Source: a virus
Lineage: Duplodnaviria; Caudoviricetes
IMG/VR virus record: IMGVR_UViG_3300032320_001447
Coordinates: 32,001-96,000 of that record
Strand: one strand, 5' to 3'
DNA: 64,000 bases
A program made the translations under genes and the position numbers. How positions within the stretch are numbered: the first letter of the stretch is position 1; the number at the start of each line of letters is the position of its first letter. Below the pieces are notes generated by a model, which saw only the letters and a program-made list of their open reading frames with translations, was not told the DNA's origin and did not search any database. This document shows positions 31,513-42,827 of this stretch, piece by piece.

Positions 31513-32184
31513 CTATTCGTGAGCCTTGTATATTTCCAAGATATTTTCTACTATTGGGTCCCTATGATTGGTCTTTAAAGCAACCACTTCGAATCCTGGC
31601 ACTTCTTTGAAATTTGTACATATAAAATGGAAACCGCTCATTTTTCTGTCTTTAAGATCAATTTGAGCTGCGTCTCCACAAACAATCATTTTAGTTCCAA
31701 CGCATATTCTACCCAATAAAAGCTCCATCTGTCTGTTGGTTATGTTTTGAGCTTCGTCTACTACAACTAAACAGTTGCTTAAATTACGCCCTCTCATAAA
31801 CGCCAATGGAATTACTTCTATGCGACCATCTATTAATTCCTTGTCTATTTTTTCTTTGTTGTAAAGCCTATACATGTTGTCGTATATGGCCGCGGTGTAA
31901 GGTGCTAGTTTGTCTTCTTTGGTGCCAGGTAAAAAACCTATGTCCTCTCCAGAAGTTACAGCTGGTCTGGTTAAAATAATTCTGTCTATCTCTTTCCTAA
32001 ACAAAAGATCTAGAGCGATCTGTGCTGCTAACATGGATTTACCGGATCCGGCTTGTCCTTTTAAAACAGTTATTTTGTTATCGAGAATTATTGACTTGGC
32101 TTGCTTTTGCTCCTCGTTTAATGGAATTAAAAACTTAATTGGATTTTTAGGAGACTTTTTTGCGATCGAGTTCGTATCAGTCAT
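31513..32184 (-). CDS. phoH: PhoH-like ATPase
   Basis: GQAGSGKS Walker A; TRPAV, GFLPG, FMRGR, DEAQN, GD..Q.D and HR motifs. Confidence 0.93.
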   Translation of the reverse strand: MTDTNSIAKKSPKNPIKFLIPLNEEQKQAKSIILDNKITVLKGQAGSGKSMLAAQIALDLLFRKEIDRIILTRPAVTSGEDIGFLPGTKEDKLAPYTAAIYDNMYRLYNKEKIDKELIDGRIEVIPLAFMRGRNLSNCLVVVDEAQNITNRQMELLLGRICVGTKMIVCGDAAQIDLKDRKMSGFHFICTNFKEVPGFEVVALKTNHRDPIVENILEIYKAHE

Positions 32185-32200
32185 TCAAATACCTTTCTAG

Positions 32201-32208
32201 ATAAATAT
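32201..32208 (-). promoter_or_regulatory. putative late promoter ATATTTAT
   Basis: Motif between the capsid terminator and phoH. Confidence 0.6.
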
Positions 32209-32212
32209 GCAT

Positions 32213-32243
32213 AAAAAAAGACCCAACTTACGTTGGGCCTTTC
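32213..32243 (-). terminator. intrinsic terminator downstream of major capsid gene
   Basis: Minus strand: GGCCCAAC-GTAA-GTTGGGTC followed by T7. Confidence 0.85.
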
Positions 32244-32264
32244 TTATATAGATCTTAAAATAGA

Positions 32265-33986
32265 TTAAACTACTTGTAAGTCTGCTACTACTACTAAACC
32301 ATAGAATTCTGGACGGATCATAGTCATCGCGTAACGAGTCATGATACCTTTTCTTGGAGTGAAGGTATTTGGATCGTACACTAATGGAGTCATGATCAAT
32401 GGAACATATGGAGAATATACAGCACCAGCTTCTAAGAACTGAGTACCACGGAAACCTAACAAGATAACGTTTTCAGTCATGTAAGGATTCTTGTACACTT
32501 TGTAGCGGCTGTTTAAAGCACCTACTTTCTGAACACCGAATGCATATTTCATTGTATCTGCTGCACCGTCAGTATCAGCCGCAAATCCTGGGATTGATTC
32601 CAAGATTGTAGCTACTGCTGGAGAAACTACCATGAAGTTAGCGCCGCCACGTAAAGTACGTTGGTGAATGATGTTAGAAACTTTTTGTAACTTGATACCA
32701 ATAGTTTGGAACCAAGTCATTTGGTTGTAATACAAACCACTTGTATTAGAAGTAAACGCATTTTTAGAAGCGTTGATTTGATCACCAACTCTAGCTGACC
32801 AATACTCTACTGTTGGAGCGTTAGTAATTAACATATCTAAGATTTCTAAGTCGATCTCTAAAGAGATGTACTCAGATAATAAACCTGTTAATTCAGCTTC
32901 AGCATCTAAAGAATGGTAAGCGTTCAAATCTTGTGCAAATTCTGGAGTCCATTGTGCCTTTAACTTTTTAGTCTTAGCGCTGATAGTTTGAGACTTCATT
33001 TGTACGTTGATCTCAGGGATAACGATTGAAGTAGCAGAAGCAGCGTTAGGAACAGAGAAGCCTTGAGTAGCAGTTCTGTCTTCAAAATCACCTCTTGTAG
33101 CAAAATCAGTTGCTTTATTGTAATCAATCTCATAAGATCCTGTAGCTATTGTACGAATAGCTGTAGAAGAGCTTACATAAAAAGAAATTTGTCCTTGGTT
33201 AGCTGAGTTATAATTGGTGAATTGAGATAATACATTGCTTGAATTGATACTTGCAGCAGAGCTACTTATTTGGAAAGCTCTAATTGAATCTAAGTCAAAA
33301 TTAGGAAGAATCGCAGAAGCACTAAAGAAAGTGATTTTAGCGATTTGACCAGCAAGAAGAGATGCTGAGTAATCTGAATTAAACTCAAGTTCAGCGAAAT
33401 CTGACATTAATAATACTGAAGCTGTACCTGAGCTGATAGTTGGATAACCACCAGATGTAGATCCAGTCGCAGAAATTCTAGATGCAGAGAATTGGTTAGT
33501 TGAATAACCAAAACGGCCAGAACCATATAAAGCACCAGCAGCAGCGTTACCGAAGTTAGCTGTGTTTGTACCGTATAAAGAATCACCAGCAGTGAAAGGA
33601 GACTTATTGTTTCCGTATTGGAAATCTAAGAAGAATACTAAACCAGCAGGTAAGTTCATTGGTTGAACAGAAACGAATTCTTTTGCAGCGATTTGACCGA
33701 AGATCTTACGAACTAAAGGTAAAGCTACACCAGCCCATTGTTCTCCAGTGCCTGGAGTGAAAGTAGCGCCGTTTGAAACACCGCCACCTGTGTTAGAAGA
33801 CTCAACTACTAATTGCTTAGCTTGGTTTTCTAAGATCATAGCCATATTAGCTTGGTCGTTTCCTTCCAAACCTTCTAAAAGGCCAGATTTTGCCCACTTC
33901 TTAGAAAGCTTTTGAGCTACAGTAAACTGAGCTTGTTGAGCGTTCTGAGCAGACTCATTTAATAATGATTGTACTAAGTTTGCCAT
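32265..33986 (-). CDS. gp23: major capsid protein (T4 gp23-like)
   Basis: LENQ, VSVQPMNLPAGLVF, KLKAQWTPEFAQDLNAYH.LDAEAEL, YSPYVPL and P.KGIMTRYA motifs. Confidence 0.96.
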   Translation of the reverse strand: MANLVQSLLNESAQNAQQAQFTVAQKLSKKWAKSGLLEGLEGNDQANMAMILENQAKQLVVESSNTGGGVSNGATFTPGTGEQWAGVALPLVRKIFGQIAAKEFVSVQPMNLPAGLVFFLDFQYGNNKSPFTAGDSLYGTNTANFGNAAAGALYGSGRFGYSTNQFSASRISATGSTSGGYPTISSGTASVLLMSDFAELEFNSDYSASLLAGQIAKITFFSASAILPNFDLDSIRAFQISSSAASINSSNVLSQFTNYNSANQGQISFYVSSSTAIRTIATGSYEIDYNKATDFATRGDFEDRTATQGFSVPNAASATSIVIPEINVQMKSQTISAKTKKLKAQWTPEFAQDLNAYHSLDAEAELTGLLSEYISLEIDLEILDMLITNAPTVEYWSARVGDQINASKNAFTSNTSGLYYNQMTWFQTIGIKLQKVSNIIHQRTLRGGANFMVVSPAVATILESIPGFAADTDGAADTMKYAFGVQKVGALNSRYKVYKNPYMTENVILLGFRGTQFLEAGAVYSPYVPLIMTPLVYDPNTFTPRKGIMTRYAMTMIRPEFYGLVVVADLQVV

Positions 33987-34011
33987 TTGTTATGGAATTA
34001 AAATTTTTAAA

Positions 34012-35142
34012 TTATTTGATACCAGCTAATTTTTGCATTCTAGAGATAAAAGGATCTGATTCGATCGTTTGTGTCTGCTTAGGTGCAAGTCCAGCTGCTT
34101 GTGATGCAAAACCTTCGTTAATTGATTTCTTTTTAGAAACAGCGAAAGATTCATTTAAAGTAGCAAATGTGTTCTTAACTTCTTTAACTGTAGTAGCTCT
34201 ATCGAAAGCGTTGATAGCTTTGATCTTTTGAGATTCAGTTAATGATTTAGCTTTAAACAATTTGTTCATGAATAAGTACTTAGCGTTTAATAAGTTAACT
34301 TCTTTCAATTGAGTTTGTAAATAAGAGATTGTTTGATTTGCTTCTTTCAATTGTTTTTCAGTTCCAGGAACTACTAATTGCTCTTGCTCGTCCATCTCAT
34401 CTTTACCTTCTTCCATTTCTTCTTTCTTCTCTTCAACTTTTTCTTTTGAAGCTTCTTCTAATTCAGCAAAAATTTCGTCTAAATTGATGTCGTCAGTAGC
34501 TTCGTCGCCTTCTGCACCTTCTTCATCAGCTTGATAAGGAGCTAAAATGTCTTTTAATTGACCCAAAGTGATAGTGATTACTTTTTCTTCTTCTTCACCA
34601 TCCATTTCTTCTTCGTCATCCATTTCAACTTCTTCTTCACCGTCTTCTTCAGACTTTGCTTCGTAGTTCATGTCGTCTTCGCCTTCTTCCATTTCTTCTT
34701 CTGTGCCCTCTTCCATTTCGCCTTCGTGGTCTGCGCCTTCGTTAGCTAATGCTTCAAGTTCACCTAAGATTTCTTCAAGAGACGTTTCGTCCATTTCGTC
34801 AGCTTCATCCATCTCTTCAGTCTCGTCCATTTCCTCAGCTTCATCCATTTCTTCAGCCTCATCCATCTCTTCGGCTTCGTCCATTTCTTCTGCTTCGTCC
34901 ATTTCCTCAACTTCGTCAAGTTCTTCAGCATCTTTTTTGTGCTTCTTTTCCTCGACTTTGTGTTTCGCTTCGTCCATTTCTTCAGCTTCGTCCATTTCGT
35001 CAGCAGCTTCTTCAACGGTCTTGCGGAACATTTCTTTCAGTTTAGGTTCAAATGCTTCTTCTAATGCAGCTTTAGCGTTAGCCATGGCGCTAGCTCTTAG
35101 TGCTTTTGCGTCAGCAATTGCCTCTTTGTACAAATTTTCCAT
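34012..35142 (-). CDS. prohead scaffold/core protein (gp22-like position)
   Basis: Highly acidic coiled coil between the protease and capsid genes; EEMDEA hexapeptide repeats; C-terminal RMQKLAGI. Confidence 0.8.
   Translation of the reverse strand: MENLYKEAIADAKALRASAMANAKAALEEAFEPKLKEMFRKTVEEAADEMDEAEEMDEAKHKVEEKKHKKDAEELDEVEEMDEAEEMDEAEEMDEAEEMDEAEEMDETEEMDEADEMDETSLEEILGELEALANEGADHEGEMEEGTEEEMEEGEDDMNYEAKSEEDGEEEVEMDDEEEMDGEEEEKVITITLGQLKDILAPYQADEEGAEGDEATDDINLDEIFAELEEASKEKVEEKKEEMEEGKDEMDEQEQLVVPGTEKQLKEANQTISYLQTQLKEVNLLNAKYLFMNKLFKAKSLTESQKIKAINAFDRATTVKEVKNTFATLNESFAVSKKKSINEGFASQAAGLAPKQTQTIESDPFISRMQKLAGIK
34786..35010 (-). repeat. 18-bp (EEMDEA) tandem repeat array in scaffold gene
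   Basis: About ten imperfect GAAGAAATGGACGAAGCT-like units. Confidence 0.85.
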
Positions 35143-35166
35143 TTGTTATAAAATAATGTGTGTTCT

Positions 35167-35233
35167 GATTGCTTATTGTAATGTGAAGCAATATGTAGAT
35201 AAAATTCGTGTAGCTACCGCATTAGAAAGCGGT
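35167..35233 (-). promoter_or_regulatory. two-hairpin leader of scaffold/capsid mRNA
   Basis: ACCGC-UUUCUAAU-GCGGU and AUUGCUU-CACAUUACAAU-AAGCAAU in an about 100-nt leader. Confidence 0.45.
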
Positions 35234-35243
35234 GCATGTACCA

Positions 35244-35251
35244 ATAAATAC
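35244..35251 (-). promoter_or_regulatory. putative late promoter (GTATTTAT variant)
   Basis: One-mismatch copy upstream of the scaffold and capsid genes. Confidence 0.5.
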
Positions 35252-35286
35252 GGCACTTTTTTCGAAAAATATGTATATACTAAAAA

Positions 35287-35934
35287 TTATTTGGTCAAAC
35301 AACAAACTCCGCTCTGAGAACAGATTAGGTCTGAAATGAGACGGCTTGCTCTTTCGTACTTATTTGTCATAGCCATTTGTAAATCGATTGATTCTCTAAG
35401 ACCTGGTGCGCTTGGGTTGGCAACAGGCTTCATGTAAGCTCCGTAAGTTGATGGAGTGGAAACAAAGTCCCAACAAATAAGATCCAAGTCGTCTTCTACT
35501 TGAACCAAACCTTCGCCAATTGGAATAACAGATCCCAAAGCTCTAGAAGAGATGCCTACGGTGATGTTATTTGCGAAAAGTTGAGTAAGTATGTTTCCTG
35601 ATGGTGTAGGTAGGATTTCTATTTGACCGTAAAGATCTTTGTCTTGCCACCAAAGTTTAACGATGTTATGGCTAACGTTCTTTAAGTTAATAACCGTAGA
35701 CTCTGGGTGATCTAATTCTCCCAAAGCTCTATTTTCTCTGATTGGCCCGTTCATGTACTTTTCTACTTGCGTAAATAGTACTTCGTAAGGATATATTCTT
35801 TTGTTGGCATTTGGCTTATCGCATGCTTGCACTTGTCCGCTAACGATTAGGTTACCGTTTGTGTGTCTTCTACTCTCGTTCAATGAAACTGTAGGAGTAA
35901 AGTAAGCAGTCTCTATAAGTAATTGTTTTGCCAT
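35287..35934 (-). CDS. gp21: prohead protease (T4 gp21-like)
   Basis: N.NKRIYP, ALGELDHP, NVSH, TPSG.IL, GISSRALGS and DFVSTPS motifs. Confidence 0.93.
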   Translation of the reverse strand: MAKQLLIETAYFTPTVSLNESRRHTNGNLIVSGQVQACDKPNANKRIYPYEVLFTQVEKYMNGPIRENRALGELDHPESTVINLKNVSHNIVKLWWQDKDLYGQIEILPTPSGNILTQLFANNITVGISSRALGSVIPIGEGLVQVEDDLDLICWDFVSTPSTYGAYMKPVANPSAPGLRESIDLQMAMTNKYERASRLISDLICSQSGVCCLTK

Positions 35935-37313
35935 TATGCTACAGTTGTTGAGGTCGCAGATTTAATGCCCTTTTGTTTGTAATTTTGAGCTGTCTTCGTG
36001 CCTTTTCCAGTTGGAACTACGTCTAAAGTAACTTCTTGACCTTGAGGATTTTTACCTTTTACAATATCCATAGCTTCATCTACGTCTTTTTTCTTTTTAT
36101 CTAAACCCAAAGCCTTTCTTAGTTTTTCAACAATTCCCATAGTTTTCTTTTGGCGATCTGCGTCTATCTTAGAAGGGAAATCTGCAATTCCACCGAATGT
36201 TTTTTCTCCTTTTTTGTCCCAATCAGACCACATATTATCTCTTGCTTCTTTATCGTCAGCTTGAGATTTCATCGCGGCTAACTCTTTAGCTTTATCGATT
36301 ACGTTGCTTTGTCTGTTAATAATCATTGGCTCTTCGCCTTCTCTATGTATTTCTAATTCTAAAGTACCACCAATTATATTTTTTATAATACCGGTTTGAC
36401 TTTTGAATTCTTTAACGTCCTCTTCTGGTAAATCAACCTCTTGGCCCATGCCGTAAATAGGATGCATGTCCTCAGTTAACTCAACTTTTTTTTTAAGAAG
36501 GTCTTTTAAGATATCCAATTGAGCAGACTCTTTCATCATTTTAACACCTTTTGGATTACCTCTCTTATTCTCTTTCTTAGAAGCTTTTGTATTTGCTTTA
36601 GCATCGTTGAAGCCTTTAATCTTCTTCATGCCATTGTACTTATCAACAAAATTTCCGTCTTTAACTGGAGTCATGCCCAATCTAGCATCGGCTTTTTCAA
36701 TCTTTGCTGAGTTAGAAACTTGTAATTCGTCGTATGCAGTAGGATCTTTTGCTAATTTCTTAGTAGCTGTTGCAGTAGCTTTTGCGTAAGCCAAATTGTT
36801 AATTTGACCTCCTTTTAATAATTCTGCTTCAATGCCTTTCTTTAACAAGTAAGGATGGATGTTATCTGCAGCAGACGCTTCACTTAGAGATATTTTTTTT
36901 GCTGCTAAAGTTGGATCTTTTTTTGATGCGTTGTCCATGTAAGACTTATCTCCCCACCAAGCAATTACTGAATTGGTATCTGCGGTAGAATTGAATCTAG
37001 GCCCAGCTTTAAAAATATCTACGTGTTGTAGTTTGTTATTTGCGCGTATTAAGTTTTTTGCAAAACTCATAGCTTTTTGTACATCAGAAAACTTTTTAGC
37101 TTGTCTAATTCCATCAGAGTAATGAACTTCGTAATTCTCACTCATTTCTGATTCTTTAATAACGCCTTTGTTTTTAAGAATCTTAATAGAATCTTCGTAA
37201 GAAGTCATATTGGTGATAAAAGGTAACTGTTGGTCCCTTCTAACTTCGTATAAGAATTTTTCACGGCTGATTTCTCCGGCTCTGTGTTTCTTGAATAAGA
37301 TTGATACTGTCAT
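35934..37313 (-). CDS. hypothetical head-associated protein
   Basis: 459-aa charged ORF in the head operon, TAATG-coupled to the protease gene. Confidence 0.65.
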   Translation of the reverse strand: MTVSILFKKHRAGEISREKFLYEVRRDQQLPFITNMTSYEDSIKILKNKGVIKESEMSENYEVHYSDGIRQAKKFSDVQKAMSFAKNLIRANNKLQHVDIFKAGPRFNSTADTNSVIAWWGDKSYMDNASKKDPTLAAKKISLSEASAADNIHPYLLKKGIEAELLKGGQINNLAYAKATATATKKLAKDPTAYDELQVSNSAKIEKADARLGMTPVKDGNFVDKYNGMKKIKGFNDAKANTKASKKENKRGNPKGVKMMKESAQLDILKDLLKKKVELTEDMHPIYGMGQEVDLPEEDVKEFKSQTGIIKNIIGGTLELEIHREGEEPMIINRQSNVIDKAKELAAMKSQADDKEARDNMWSDWDKKGEKTFGGIADFPSKIDADRQKKTMGIVEKLRKALGLDKKKKDVDEAMDIVKGKNPQGQEVTLDVVPTGKGTKTAQNYKQKGIKSATSTTVA

Positions 37314-37317
37314 ATTG

Positions 37318-37325
37318 ATAAATAT
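37318..37325 (-). promoter_or_regulatory. putative late promoter ATATTTAT
   Basis: Motif immediately upstream of the start at 37313. Confidence 0.5.
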
Positions 37326-37459
37326 TATCTTCCTTGACCTTGATAGGTTTTTGGTCTTGGACTGTGCTTATTAAAACTCTTTTTACCTCCAGGTTGCCCT
37401 GATTTTCTTTTTCCGAAAACTAATTTTTCACTGCTTCCGGCTGACTTTATTTTTGCCAT
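37325..37459 (-). CDS. 44-aa basic protein ending K.YQGQGR
   Basis: Manual translation MAKIKSAGSSEKLVFGKRKSGQPGGKKSFNKHSPRPKTYQGQGR; fills the gap in the head operon exactly. Confidence 0.75.
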   Translation of the reverse strand: MAKIKSAGSSEKLVFGKRKSGQPGGKKSFNKHSPRPKTYQGQGR

Positions 37460-37460
37460 G

Positions 37461-38399
37461 TTACTTTAAACTTTTAACCTTTTTGTAAATTTCTGCTAGC
37501 TGTCTTTCTAGCTTATTCACAACCTTACCAGTTCTTGGACTATAGTCCTCTTCCAATTCCATTTTCATGTTGGTAGAGTATTCCATTAACCTGTTTATTT
37601 CGTGTAACTTTTTGTTTATTGATTTCAATGCCTCGTGTAAAGCATCTTTGTTAGGTCTTGTTGCAGCCTCTCTTTTGAATTTATTGTAAGTCAAAGCTTC
37701 ATTTAAATCTTCGCTGCCGTATAAATGACTATCGCTAAAATTGTCGCCTATTACTTCTATATCTTGAGTTCCAAAGTCCATCATCATATCGTAGGCTAAA
37801 TCTTCATCGTCTGTATAGTATGTGTCTGATCCGTTTAACTCTACGCCCATGTAACTTGGATTGTCTCTAAGTACATCTAAAGCTCTTTTTGCATCTCTAA
37901 CTGAAACTTTAACGTAGTACTTTTTCTCTTCGTCTTCTGTTTGCATTTCTTGATCAGGTTCTGCTTGCTTTTTGATATATCTTTTAGAAACATCGTCGAA
38001 TGACCAATCGTCTTGATTAAATTCTTGGTAGTTTCTAGCTTGCTGATATTCCATTGGAGATAAAGAGTCTTTGTCCAAGTTTACTGGCTGTAAAACTCCC
38101 TCTTCCATTTCTTCGAACATCTGCTTGTATTGAAATCCTCCTTTAGATGGTCTGTTTGGAATAGATGGTGCAGATTTCCAACCCCATTTTTTTTGAGGAT
38201 ATATTTCTGCTTTACCTGCAGCTAATTTTGGTTCTACGTCTTTTACCTCGTTTTTCTTCTTTTTGAAAGCTTTCGTAGTTGAGTATTGTTCTCCAGTGCC
38301 AGGCGTAAATGTAGCTCCGTTAGAAACTCCACCACCAGTCGCACTTTCCTCTGATAGTAATCTTTGTGTTGCGAATTGATTATCGAAAGGTTTCTTCAT
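37461..38399 (-). CDS. head protein carrying a copy of the capsid N-arm peptide
   Basis: Residues 21-38 TGGGVSNGATFTPGTGEQ are identical to capsid residues 66-83; C-terminal coiled coil. Confidence 0.75.
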   Translation of the reverse strand: MKKPFDNQFATQRLLSEESATGGGVSNGATFTPGTGEQYSTTKAFKKKKNEVKDVEPKLAAGKAEIYPQKKWGWKSAPSIPNRPSKGGFQYKQMFEEMEEGVLQPVNLDKDSLSPMEYQQARNYQEFNQDDWSFDDVSKRYIKKQAEPDQEMQTEDEEKKYYVKVSVRDAKRALDVLRDNPSYMGVELNGSDTYYTDDEDLAYDMMMDFGTQDIEVIGDNFSDSHLYGSEDLNEALTYNKFKREAATRPNKDALHEALKSINKKLHEINRLMEYSTNMKMELEEDYSPRTGKVVNKLERQLAEIYKKVKSLK

Positions 38400-39253
38400 T
38401 ATTTAGATACTCTTTTTAGCTCGTCAATTAATTCACAATATTGTAAAATTCCAGTAATGGTTTCGTCTTTAATAGCGATGCCCTCTTTTAATGGCTTTAT
38501 GAATTTAATTACTTCTTCTGCTTTTATTTTAGTAACTTTATCTTCTACTTTTTCAGTTTGCTCGATAAGTTCTTGCTTGATCTCTTTTAACTTAGTGTTT
38601 AAAAATTTTCTTAAATTAGCAGAATCAGATATGCTAGAAACGTATTCTTTTAAAATGCCCTTTTGTCTTTCAGAAAGGCCTTGGTATTTCTTATTGAATT
38701 TCTCAACCAATAATTTGTAGGTCAAAAGTCTGATCTCTTTGTCTTCATTCATTAACTCTTGAACCATTGATTGAGGCGCTTGCATGTCCTTAATAGAGTC
38801 TTGAGTAATGTGCTCCAAAAGATTGATCTTGTTTAGAACGATCTGCTTGGTATCTGAATTAGGGCTGTTTTGAGATTCAAATATTGTATAAACAGAAGCG
38901 TAAGGCTTGTAATTCTCTATCTTGGCTTTAAAAAAATCTTCTAGGTTGTAGTTCTTTTTAATTTCTTTGATTAGATTATACTTGGCTTGGCTGAGTGTGT
39001 CGTGGCTTAATTTCTTATATTGTTCTAAAATGGTTGAAATAAGAATCTCGGCCCTAGCTTCTGAAAGTTTTGGACTGGTTACGAAAGCGCTGTACAAGCT
39101 GTACTCTTTTCCCAATTCTGTGTTGGTAAAGTGCTTTTTAAGTATTTTAACAGCTTTAGAGTCCTGATTGTTCAAAAGGTCTGAAGTTGTCTGTCTTACT
39201 AAAAGTTCAAATAAAATACCGGTGTTACGATATTTAGAATGTTTAATTCCCAT
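38399..39253 (-). CDS. hypothetical protein downstream of portal (possible prohead core component)
   Basis: IKHSKYRNTGILFELLVRQ N-terminus; helical; head-operon position. Confidence 0.65.
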   Translation of the reverse strand: MGIKHSKYRNTGILFELLVRQTTSDLLNNQDSKAVKILKKHFTNTELGKEYSLYSAFVTSPKLSEARAEILISTILEQYKKLSHDTLSQAKYNLIKEIKKNYNLEDFFKAKIENYKPYASVYTIFESQNSPNSDTKQIVLNKINLLEHITQDSIKDMQAPQSMVQELMNEDKEIRLLTYKLLVEKFNKKYQGLSERQKGILKEYVSSISDSANLRKFLNTKLKEIKQELIEQTEKVEDKVTKIKAEEVIKFIKPLKEGIAIKDETITGILQYCELIDELKRVSK

Positions 39254-39276
39254 AGCTATTTTGGATAGGCTTGCTA

Positions 39277-39284
39277 ATAAATAT
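39277..39284 (-). promoter_or_regulatory. putative late promoter ATATTTAT
   Basis: Motif upstream of the start at 39253. Confidence 0.6.
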
Positions 39285-39293
39285 CTAAATATT

Positions 39294-41216
39294 CTAATCT
39301 AGATTGTCAATGATGTTGTCTTCGCTTAATAGGCTTGATTGTTCAAAAAGTTGAGTCTTTCTAGCATTCTGCTTCTCGAACATTTTCTCAATTGAGTTTT
39401 TGTTCTGTAAATAGATAGCCATAGTGTTCTCCATATTCAAAGCTCCACCTTTAAAAGTAACGCCAACCTTATCTTCCCTAGTCTCGGCATTTTGAGTATT
39501 CATATCGTAAACTCCAGCTCTTCCAAATGGAGATTCGTCGGTTCCGTATATAGATTTGTATTTTTGTGGTCTTCCAGGAATCTTCATTGGCTCTTTTGGA
39601 TTTGTCTCATCGTAGCCTCTAGGCACATCTAGCGTACCATCACCTTTTCCACCGTATAAGCTTGCGATCTGATGAGGTGTACCAAATGCTTGGCCTGTTT
39701 CTGCTGGATCGTTTCCTTCCTCTGCGATTTGTTTGTATCTAAACTTGCGCTTTTGATCTTCTACAATAAGGTCATCTAACTCATCAAATTCGTCCTCAGA
39801 GATATTAAATACGTTCTTCCAAATATAATCTCTTGGTAAAGAAGAGTTTTCAACCGCTTGATTAGCAAGGTCAATCTTCTCTTTCATCATAGCAATTCTC
39901 TCTTGCTCGTATATAATAGAAGGATTAGTTAACTGAATATCGAAGTTAGTAATTGATTCGTTAGTGTAACCGTGAGCGTACAAGTGAACCAATGCCACTT
40001 TCTTCAATTCAGATACAATGATTCTTTGGATTCTCTCAATTGTTCTTGCAAAACGAATATCTTCAGCTGCTAAAGTTGCTTTACCTGTTAAGTCCTTTTC
40101 GTATCCCATGAATGCTTTAGGAACCTTTAACGCTGCAAATAGTTTCTCTCTAAAGTATTGAACGTCTTCGATAGCGTTGTACTCAAGACCTTTTGCGGTA
40201 TCAATTCTAGTAGATTGATCGTTACCTCTAACTGGAATAAAGAAGTCTTCCAATAAGTTTTGTTGGTTGAACTTCATATTGTATTGACCAGTTTGAGCAT
40301 CGATAAGTGGAGTTTTCTTCATCTTACCGATCATACGTTGAATGTAGTTCTCAACCTCGTTTGGTGGGATGGCTCCCACGTTAACGTAGAATGTTCTTCT
40401 TTCTGGGGCACGCGTAATTCTATGAATCAACATCGCATCTTCGATTAAAGTATATTGCTTGAATAGCTTTCTTGCTGGTTCCAAATAAGATCTACCGTAA
40501 GGTAAATAGTTTACGTCTCCTAAAAATCTAAAGTGAGCCATTTCGTACAAGTCAAACCAAATTCCTGGATCTTGATTGTTATAGGCCGAAGTGTATCCTG
40601 TTGTAGAACTTATAGCTGCGTTAGGATCGAACTTAAATCTTACTTCGTTTGGATTTTTTGGATTAAAACCTTCTTGTCTAACGATGTTGTAAGCAGAGAA
40701 TGGAATTACGTTGTAAACTCCAAACTTTTCTGCAATTTCTAATTTTAAATAGAAATCACCGTATTTACACATGTTTCTAATCCATGACCATAAGTTAAAT
40801 TCTATATTTAAAACTGAATAGAATAGGTTTTCTAGTAAATTTTGAATGTTTTCATCTGCAGAAGTAATGTGTAGTACTTGACCTTGATCGTTTTTTAGAG
40901 TACACTCATCTGCAATAATATCTAACGCAGAAGCAATGATAGCATCTGTATCCATTGCATCATAATCTGCATATATTTGTACACGAGCTGATTGATAGTT
41001 CTGAGCTAGATTTAGGTTAACTCCATAAGCTGTAGACGTAGTGTATACTTTGTGGAATCTATCAATTAAGGAGTTAGTTTGAATCACACCAGAAGTCTGA
41101 ATGTGTTCAGTATCTATCACTTGTAAATTCTTGCCGCCAGAATCTCTAATAATGACATCGGTCGAGAAGAGTCTTCTTAGCGCCGAAAATAGGTTGTCTT
41201 GTTTGTTTTCTGCCAT
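39294..41216 (-). CDS. gp20: portal protein (T4 gp20-like)
   Basis: SYLEPARK...EDAMLIHRITRAPERR.FYVNVG.IP, EDFFIPVRG and LFAALKVP motifs. Confidence 0.95.
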   Translation of the reverse strand: MAENKQDNLFSALRRLFSTDVIIRDSGGKNLQVIDTEHIQTSGVIQTNSLIDRFHKVYTTSTAYGVNLNLAQNYQSARVQIYADYDAMDTDAIIASALDIIADECTLKNDQGQVLHITSADENIQNLLENLFYSVLNIEFNLWSWIRNMCKYGDFYLKLEIAEKFGVYNVIPFSAYNIVRQEGFNPKNPNEVRFKFDPNAAISSTTGYTSAYNNQDPGIWFDLYEMAHFRFLGDVNYLPYGRSYLEPARKLFKQYTLIEDAMLIHRITRAPERRTFYVNVGAIPPNEVENYIQRMIGKMKKTPLIDAQTGQYNMKFNQQNLLEDFFIPVRGNDQSTRIDTAKGLEYNAIEDVQYFREKLFAALKVPKAFMGYEKDLTGKATLAAEDIRFARTIERIQRIIVSELKKVALVHLYAHGYTNESITNFDIQLTNPSIIYEQERIAMMKEKIDLANQAVENSSLPRDYIWKNVFNISEDEFDELDDLIVEDQKRKFRYKQIAEEGNDPAETGQAFGTPHQIASLYGGKGDGTLDVPRGYDETNPKEPMKIPGRPQKYKSIYGTDESPFGRAGVYDMNTQNAETREDKVGVTFKGGALNMENTMAIYLQNKNSIEKMFEKQNARKTQLFEQSSLLSEDNIIDNLD

Positions 41217-41225
41217 ATCTTTATA

Positions 41226-42827
41226 TTATAAAAGCCAAGTTAAATCTTGTTGTTCTTTTCCCATTGGAGTTGCGATCTCTTGTTGCCATGGGTTATTACC
41301 ATAATTAGTGTAAGACTGATACATAGGACTATCTTCTCCAGCTTTTGAGAAAGCATTTAGACTAGCGTGAGTTAGACTTTCTGCTGTTCTTCTGAATCTT
41401 AAAGAAGTTTCTCTCAAATACATAGCAATCGAAAAAGCCATCACTAAGTCATCGTTGTACCCCGACATAGCTTGTTGCTTACCGTTCTTCCATATAAATA
41501 CGCGAAGCTCCTCTAATAATCTAACTGATCTTATAGTAACCGTTTTGTTTTCTATAAAGTCTCTCATCTTTTCTAATACAGAAGGTCTAACTTTAGGACT
41601 CATGGTAAATCCAGGTACCAAAGTTGCATTTCCGTAGTGCACTTGTAAATAGCTGTTTAAGTCAGCGTTGCTGTCAGATCTATGACTAAAGTGAATATTT
41701 GAGTATCCGCTCTCTACCACGCCTTGAACTACGTCCCAACCAATATTTGCGTTTTCAATTACCAATAAAGCTTGGTTGTATCTAGTTGCTATCGCTATAA
41801 GCTCGTTGGCAAATATCCTGGTGTCTGTTTGGGCTTTAAATTCAGCTACTTGTGTCAATGTCTCTGTATCTATAACATGATAAGCAGAGTAGTCCATTGA
41901 GTCTCCCCTCGCTACGTCAGCTACTACCATATAGTATGTGGTGGGTTTAGGATATTCCCAAATCCAAAGTGCTTTTTCCTGACCTTCTCTATTGATTGGC
42001 TCGGATATCATATTGGCTTCGTACCAAGTTAAAATTTCTGGAGGAATTACTGTATTACCTGAAGTAGCAAAGTCACAATCACACTCTTGAGCTGCGTTTC
42101 TAACTCCGAGATCTATGTCTTGCATATTTCTCCAATCTTGATTTCTTTCAGGGTGAACCGTCCAAGGTAACGAGATTGGTAAGAAGTTATTCTTTTGTAA
42201 TTGAGCTTCTGTGTAAGACTTGTGGAACCAGTTACCAACACCGTTAGGAGTAGATAACGCGATACATCCACCACCCGTAGCCAAGGTCATCTTAGCCGCA
42301 GTGTAGATAGTTTCAATGTTATCGATAAACGCGGCCTCATCTATTACCAAGAGCGACACGGCTTCCGAACGACCTGCGTCACCGGCTGCTGATACTGCTT
42401 TGATTTGAGAACCGTTTGTTAGTCTTAAACTTAATGCGTTGTTAGAAGTTGCTGCAGCTCCGATCTTCATCCAGTTAGGTAAGTTATCGTAAGCGAATCT
42501 AACCTTTGTAACCATGTTCTTTGCAGTGTCCTGCTTAGTCGCGATTACAAGAATATTCTTATCTTTTGAAAATACCATCATCCATAAAGAGTACGCAGAC
42601 ACTAAGGTAGAGATACCCAACTGTCTTGACTTATTTATGATTGAATCCGGATGTTTTTGAAATAGTTTTAGAACCTTTTCTTGGAACGGATAAAGGTCGA
42701 ACAGCATTCGACCTCTTTGTGGGTGTTGGATCATATAATATTTCTTCATGAAATATACAGGATCTTGAGCGCACCTTACAAACTCTTCCTTAATTCTTTG
42801 TTTTATATCGATTTGACTCTCTGACAT
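41226..42827 (-). CDS. gp17: terminase large subunit (T4 gp17-like)
   Basis: C.QDPVYF, LYPFQ, KSRQLGIST, LVIDEAAFI and STPNG motifs; nuclease DVARG and DDLVMA motifs. Confidence 0.95.
   Translation of the reverse strand: MSESQIDIKQRIKEEFVRCAQDPVYFMKKYYMIQHPQRGRMLFDLYPFQEKVLKLFQKHPDSIINKSRQLGISTLVSAYSLWMMVFSKDKNILVIATKQDTAKNMVTKVRFAYDNLPNWMKIGAAATSNNALSLRLTNGSQIKAVSAAGDAGRSEAVSLLVIDEAAFIDNIETIYTAAKMTLATGGGCIALSTPNGVGNWFHKSYTEAQLQKNNFLPISLPWTVHPERNQDWRNMQDIDLGVRNAAQECDCDFATSGNTVIPPEILTWYEANMISEPINREGQEKALWIWEYPKPTTYYMVVADVARGDSMDYSAYHVIDTETLTQVAEFKAQTDTRIFANELIAIATRYNQALLVIENANIGWDVVQGVVESGYSNIHFSHRSDSNADLNSYLQVHYGNATLVPGFTMSPKVRPSVLEKMRDFIENKTVTIRSVRLLEELRVFIWKNGKQQAMSGYNDDLVMAFSIAMYLRETSLRFRRTAESLTHASLNAFSKAGEDSPMYQSYTNYGNNPWQQEIATPMGKEQQDLTWLL

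Follow-up and report, generated by a model that had tools for sequence, protein, structure and literature searches.

A head-module protein of T4-like phages carries an in-register copy of the putative maturation junction of the major capsid protein

We describe a phage head-module protein which, in a genome that also encodes an S77-family prohead protease, carries an in-register copy of the junction at which the major capsid protein (MCP) is putatively cleaved during maturation; this copy is conserved among relatives and co-varies with the MCP within genomes. The protein has 312 residues and is the product of an open reading frame (hereafter the ORF) at 37461-38399 on the minus strand of the window, by which we mean the whole 64,000-nt stretch of DNA that we analysed (positions 32,001-96,000 of the IMG/VR virus record IMGVR_UViG_3300032320_001447; the whole virus genome comprises 174,359 bases). 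We think it probable that the ORF encodes a head-assembly protein that is loaded into the prohead and trimmed by the protease, and that uses the MCP maturation junction as a mimic; its loading, its cleavage and its binding partner are steps that we infer. Because related phages keep matching copies of their own, the protein is probably a component of T4-type head assembly that has gone unstudied.

Residues 21-38 of the ORF (38286-38339, minus strand) are the same 18 residues as residues 66-83 of the MCP (33738-33791, minus strand), with 9 of the 54 bases differing between the two copies. These differences fall in nine codons, all of them at third positions and all silent, an outcome with a probability of ~1.2e-5 under random change. 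Translation of both sites thus reproduced the 18-residue identity and the nine silent codon differences reported in a preliminary description of this DNA, and a simple calculation puts the number of exact 18-residue pairs expected by chance among the ORFs of the genome at ~1.7e-13. A glutamate lies three residues ahead of each copy and in register (LLSE17 in the ORF and LVVE62 in the MCP), just as that description had it. No further copy of the peptide was found, either in the six frames of the window or in the whole 174,359-base genome, where it occurs just in the ORF and in the MCP.

The likeness between the two proteins is confined to their N-termini. Specifically, the sole BLASTP match joins residues 1-40 of the ORF to residues 48-85 of the MCP (24/40 identical, E 5e-11), which agrees with the earlier view that the proteins are otherwise unrelated. 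Profile-profile comparison (hhalign) of the N-terminal module of the ORF with the MCP N-terminus gave a probability of 96% (E 2e-9); when the leader and the peptide were removed, nothing was left of this similarity (E 0.77), meaning that the mimicry spans the Glu site and some 20-25 residues. The full hhalign alignment had suggested homology past the peptide (i.e., into the N-arm and the first strand), and this candidate was rejected as it vanishes without the leader and peptide. Pfam gives the ORF no match to Gp23 (PF07068) or to the HK97-type capsid fold, and searches of Pfam and PHROG as a whole yielded no family assignment.

On the minus strand the genes run in the order portal, a 284-aa gene, the ORF, a 44-aa basic ORF, a 459-aa gene, S77 protease, acidic scaffold and MCP, which is backed by Pfam matches for the portal (PF07230), the protease (PF03420) and the MCP (PF07068). 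The portal protein (Portal_T4; 39294-41216) is directly followed by the conserved 284-aa gene (38399-39253), whose stop overlaps the start of the ORF by one base (TAATG); the same N-terminal motif as in the 284-aa product is found in Flavobacterium phage immuto (L040:4594-5448) and Microcystis phage Mel-JY01 (L041:3254-4084). The very basic 44-aa ORF lies at 37325-37459, between the ORF and the 459-aa gene, and at its place a gene of 42-46 aa is called in the relatives L043, L044, L046 and L051-L053. The prohead protease (Peptidase_S77, T4 gp21 type; 35287-35934) matches its family with an E-value of 1.2e-22. The protein at 34012-35142 is very acidic, with long tandem repeats of an E-E-M-D-E-A type unit, and is called scaffold-like by its T4 gp22 position only, with no family match. 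The MCP itself (573 aa, Pfam Gp23; 32265-33986) is the product of the sole Gp23-family gene, and neither a second such gene nor a vertex paralogue was found in the genome. Members of the ORF family are usually encoded between the genes for the portal and the S77 protease, both in the window and in those relatives for which genes were called.

In the MCP, the copied peptide lies at the position of the T4 N-fist, i.e., the first 25 residues of gp23* after the cut at Glu65, which contact four subunits in two capsomers (PMC9958956). LVVE62 (33801-33812, minus strand), which we compared by position with T4 Glu65, is a putative maturation cleavage site and is near-invariant in relatives; 21 residues separate this putative cut from the start of the conserved N-arm in the window MCP, versus 24 in T4. 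The window peptide is Gly/Thr-rich and cannot be aligned with the T4 N-fist sequence, the equivalence being one of position only. On this positional reading the segment, which the preliminary description called the N-arm, corresponds to the N-fist and not to the N-arm proper (PMC9958956). Across relatives the tip of the MCP forms a variable island between near-invariant flanks. Further upstream, MCP residues 1-11 (33954-33986, minus strand) end in LLNE and resemble the 10-residue propeptide of the T4 vertex protein gp24, which ends in LLRE; judged by this resemblance, the segment may be a second cut site.

What is known of this region in T4 frames the reading of the copy. In the unexpanded T4 head the N-terminus of gp23* is disordered and lies inside, probably touching the scaffold core (PMC9546572), and on expansion it moves to the outside, forming the N-arm and N-fist (PMC9546572; PMC9958956). 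Internal proteins are loaded into the T4 core by a 10-residue capsid targeting sequence (CTS), and gp21 cleaves behind L/I-x-E and depends on few other determinants (PMC9026906), so that the cutting after Glu invoked earlier for gp21 is documented for T4. Given that the known specificity of the T4 protease calls for no residues beyond the cut, the copy is not explained by a requirement for processing alone. A further idea, that of a gp23 'N-whisker' binding the portal, was dropped, as the whisker belongs to the portal protein gp20.

The ORF consists of a conserved N-module (residues 1-100; 38100-38399), which includes the copy, a swappable middle cassette and a conserved C-terminal helical module (residues 231-312; 37461-37709), the last defined by alignment and by an AlphaFold2 (AF2) model. 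The N-module opens with a leader of 17 residues that ends in LLSE17 (38349-38399), delimited by alignments and predicted by AF2 to form a short helix at residues 7-17; a putative protease site follows Glu17. Downstream of the copy lies a Lys-rich patch (residues 43-50; 38250-38273) that is conserved in the family and parallels the basic tail of T4 gp61.1 (see below). In the AF2 model, which is of low confidence (pLDDT 54), residues 11-103, and with them the peptide copy, are predicted to be disordered (below pLDDT 50). The middle cassette (residues 101-230; 37710-38099) is replaced by unrelated inserts in relatives with near-identical N- and C-modules; among the inserts of the family is a small beta-rich 'GDRVKV...' module, which in some members is placed elsewhere.

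A profile of the N-module (alignment A2), searched against 1.8 billion representatives, recovered 111 clusters at 50% identity. The hallmarks of this family are a short leader and an invariant Glu, followed by x-S-x-T-G, a Gly-rich spacer and a motif of the F-T-P-G-T-G-E-Q-aromatic type, and then by the Lys-rich patch and two more conserved motifs. Glu17 is invariant in 31 diverse members, most of which have a hydrophobic residue at P3 or P4, and homologues at 36-48% identity still keep, together with their own MCPs, the 11-residue core GATFTPGTGEQ. Many members carry an extra domain after the leader, in which case a second Glu site directly abuts the MCP-like peptide; in P0120, P0126, P0128, P0129, P0131, P0135 and others, the domain between the leader and the second Glu site is 80-150 aa long. 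The layout of such members looks like that of a small polyprotein. Searching a phage collection with the ORF and a marine family member revealed no close homologue in cultured phages, and the homologues in immuto, encoded by a 73-aa gene at L040:5445-5666, and in Mel-JY01, encoded by a 178-aa gene at L041:4419-4955, bear only a loose likeness to their own MCP tips. No second copy of the short MCP tips of HTVC008M and RM378 was found at E-values up to 10, in a search that is insensitive for tips of 10-12 residues.

Among close relatives, the ORF was present at 65-99% identity in 31 IMG/VR contigs, whose N-termini fall into three alleles: allele A is an exact or near-exact match to the MCP, allele B is longer and diverged (~8/18 matches), and allele C is short. 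Across 98 full-length cluster representatives allele B was the most frequent, followed by A and then by C, and even allele A is imperfect with respect to its own MCP in some genomes (one difference in L001, two to three in L051). As the commonest allele is diverged and allele A itself has mismatches, exact identity is not what is conserved: the 18/18 identity seen here is one allele of a polymorphic site and not a requirement. The preliminary description had proposed an exact mimic maintained by selection; its exactness is not supported by these alleles. Together with the short variants that are unlike the MCP in some lineages, the prevalence of allele B further implies that close mimicry is dispensable. 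Allele B is derived by an outgroup argument, clade 2 having retained the core motif, and in a tree of the flanking modules, itself unresolved, alleles A, B and C are interspersed, as expected for a recombining population.

To look beyond these close relatives, we used two sub-family alignments (A4 and A5) that fetched 135 more loci, 48 of which contain both genes. At these 48 loci, traits peculiar to the MCP tip of a lineage turn up again in the ORF from the same genome: in a marine group Tyr replaces Trp at the end of both peptides, in L091 an unusual start and G-A-Q are common to both, and L104 and L105 have G-G-Q-Y in both, the exceptions being L083, L084, L086 and L090, which have short ORF variants. 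For 42 distinct pairs, local alignment of the ORF peptide scored on average 57.3 against the MCP of its own genome and 47.2 against those of other genomes (permutation p 5e-5); the excess held across 10 coarse lineages (p 1e-4) and when the window's clade was left out (56.6 vs 48.8, p 5e-5). The check on relatives that had been suggested at the outset therefore came out in favour of a within-genome match to the capsid tip, seen among the 48 further loci and with a p of ~5e-5 for the compared pairs.

A comparable arrangement exists in T4 itself. Searching the T4 genome with gp23 residues 60-95 gave one further match, gene 61.1 (E 2.7e-5; NC_000866 18966-19130, minus strand; L191:1467-1631), which encodes a 54-aa 'conserved hypothetical' protein (NP_049649). 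Its product and gp23 form an ungapped 37-residue alignment that spans the Glu65 site, and the product ends in a basic tail. The gp61.1 leader fits a degenerate CTS pattern that was designed to take in the CTS of ipII/ipIII as well as the start of gp61.1 and that occurs in T4 only at ipII, ipIII and 61.1. A genome comparison listed 61.1 as conserved and without function (PMC1524935), and gp61.1 is a protein of unknown function in PHROG 1823 (its long forms in PHROG 2086), while some annotators label the small 61.1-like gene 'major capsid domain-containing protein'. With gp61.1 as a query, similar matches turned up in 1432 phage records, in a few instances at the MCP itself. In 44RR, Ac42, V07, Cronuts and PSTCR6 a small protein copies the MCP tip of the same phage with the Glu in register, and in the long forms (~150 aa) of Ac42, V07, Cronuts and PSTCR6 the copy stands at the C-terminal end. 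For six Straboviridae the excess of own over other MCPs was not significant (p 0.19). Scans of the 120 nt ahead of T4 61.1 and of the window's minus strand from 32000 to 41500 gave no exact match to the late-promoter sequence TATAAATA.

Taken with what is known of T4, the arrangement suggests a sequence of events in which the leader would load the ORF protein into the prohead, like a T4 protein with a CTS, the S77 protease would cut it behind Glu17, a position in register with that of the putative MCP cut behind Glu62, and the copied peptide would engage the same partner as the N-terminal region of the MCP. As for this partner, we tentatively favour one inside the uncleaved prohead, namely the acidic scaffold core or the protease, with the copy serving in the loading and processing of the protein. 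An acidic partner would suit the Lys-rich patch, and the T4 product is too small for cargo.

The main alternative, possible if doubtful and already raised in the preliminary description, is that the peptide acts after cleavage as a surrogate for the MCP tip: once exposed, it would dock in those N-fist sites that lack a capsomer at the portal vertex, either stabilising the vertex or tethering the C-terminal modules. Such a role would call for a free N-terminus, and the copy indeed always stands directly after a Glu site, even past an extra domain; the gene lies by that of the portal, the T4 N-fist makes contacts with four subunits in two capsomers (PMC9958956), and the genome has a single Gp23-family gene with no separate vertex paralogue found. 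Co-variation with the MCP tip would likewise be expected if both peptides fit the same evolving docking surface. However, the T4 N-fist ends up on the outer surface, whereas a cut protein that bore a leader would start inside, and the ORF copies the tip alone and not the N-arm. Diverged and short alleles are, moreover, common, and extra density is not mentioned in the T4 head papers examined. An extension of this alternative, which we consider unlikely, is that T4-type phages generally produce a copy of the N-fist, either free or tethered to a domain, released by the head protease and co-evolving with the MCP, that would dock in N-fist sites which no capsid subunit can fill (at the portal vertex, or at vertices built from a fist-less paralogue) or would rivet internal proteins to the shell. 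If this were true, T4 gene 61.1 would offer a testable model for it.

The likeness could also be functionless, the product of neutral concerted evolution in which ectopic gene conversion from the nearby, highly constrained MCP gene has time and again replaced the sequence of a tolerant Gly-rich linker. Only 4.4 kb separate the two genes, which share a strand in a type of phage with active recombination, alleles A, B and C occur in shuffled combinations with the flanking modules, and the exact-type allele has the clade-specific TGGGVSNG in common with the MCP of its clade. Codon usage, by contrast, argues against this. At shared residues, codon identity was 0.435 within the same genome, 0.43 between genomes of the same group and 0.455 between groups, meaning that pooled identity is no higher within than between genomes; being at background, it gives no sign of recent gene conversion and indicates that the likeness is maintained in the amino-acid sequence. 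By eye we counted ~9 silent variable sites within the exact-type allele against few replacements, and the core motif is kept at 36-48% overall identity, where an unconstrained linker would decay between conversions. We thus regard neutral conversion as improbable. On these sequence comparisons the ORF peptide is constrained in spite of its predicted disorder, whether the likeness stems from old conversions and purifying selection or from parallel change, and the background codon identity together with the own-genome excess (p ~5e-5) sustains the earlier suggestion of co-evolution as opposed to a recent copy.

One detail of the window MCP bears on conversion at a smaller scale. Within its codons 78-83 (33738-33755, minus strand) it reads GGC ACT GGA, as does the ORF copy, where 14 relatives have GGT ACT GGT, and it is alone in this ORF-like reading; the identical run between MCP and ORF is 16 bases long. 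The window's codons may mark a short conversion tract, but the MCP of L036 reads GGT ACT GGA, i.e., it has one of the two 'converted' codons, and two point changes are thus a fair alternative.

Less probable still is a decoy for whatever reads the MCP N-terminus (a competitive substrate that times MCP cleavage, or a lure for a capsid-sensing host defence): the mimicry does cover the whole cleavage junction and T4 gp61.1 is little beyond mimic and charged tail, with a gene beside that of primase and outside the head cluster, but the window gene is embedded in the head operon and overlaps with it, the ORF has large conserved extra modules, and the decoy reading is pure inference.

T4 head assembly is among the best-studied of assembly pathways, and we came across no publication that assigns a function to a protein copying the MCP junction. 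Such a copy is nonetheless the signature of a large protein family from uncultured T4-like phages of freshwater and marine habitats, where it tracks the capsid tip of its own phage. This raises the question of what reads the N-terminal tip of the MCP in assembly, and why a second protein presents the same tip. With an analogue in T4 (61.1), what might have been a curiosity becomes a question that can be addressed by T4 genetics and cryo-EM.

In comparison with known systems, the ORF protein is akin to the head proteins of T4 that carry a CTS and are processed by gp21. The internal proteins IPI-III and Alt have a short N-terminal propeptide that ends in hydrophobic-x-Glu and is removed by the gp21-type protease, with variable cargo behind a conserved leader (PMC9026906). 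The leader of the window protein likewise ends in the (L/I)-x-Glu form of CTS-bearing proteins (L-S-E17), and the phage encodes an S77 protease of the gp21 type; at 17 residues, however, the leader looks by eye unlike the T4 CTS, and the T4 internal proteins are not described as copying the new N-terminus of the MCP. A second comparison is with gp67 and gp68, components of the T4 prohead core that influence the shape of the head and are substrates of gp21 (PMC9958956, PMC9026906). Their genes occupy the same genomic position as that of the ORF, between the portal and protease genes, but these proteins (80 and 141 aa) show no homology to the ORF family profile (hhalign E 0.81 and 0.70) and, by eye, no MCP-like peptide.

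The closest parallel in principle is gp61.1, itself uncharacterised. In both proteins a short leader closes with a Glu, which is in register with that of the MCP, and is followed by an N-fist copied from the phage's own MCP and by a basic stretch (in gp61.1, the tail), and in the long forms of gp61.1 a domain precedes the copy, as it does in some members of the window family. The two nevertheless lack detectable homology (hhalign E 0.045, probability 1%; no PHROG match): gp61.1 is without the further N-module motifs and the C-terminal module of the window family, and its gene adjoins the primase gene in the replication block, whereas the window ORF belongs to the head module. The ORF family and gp61.1 each resemble the MCP of their own phage group, and judged from these sequences the window ORF would work like gp61.1 without being a member of the gp61.1 family.
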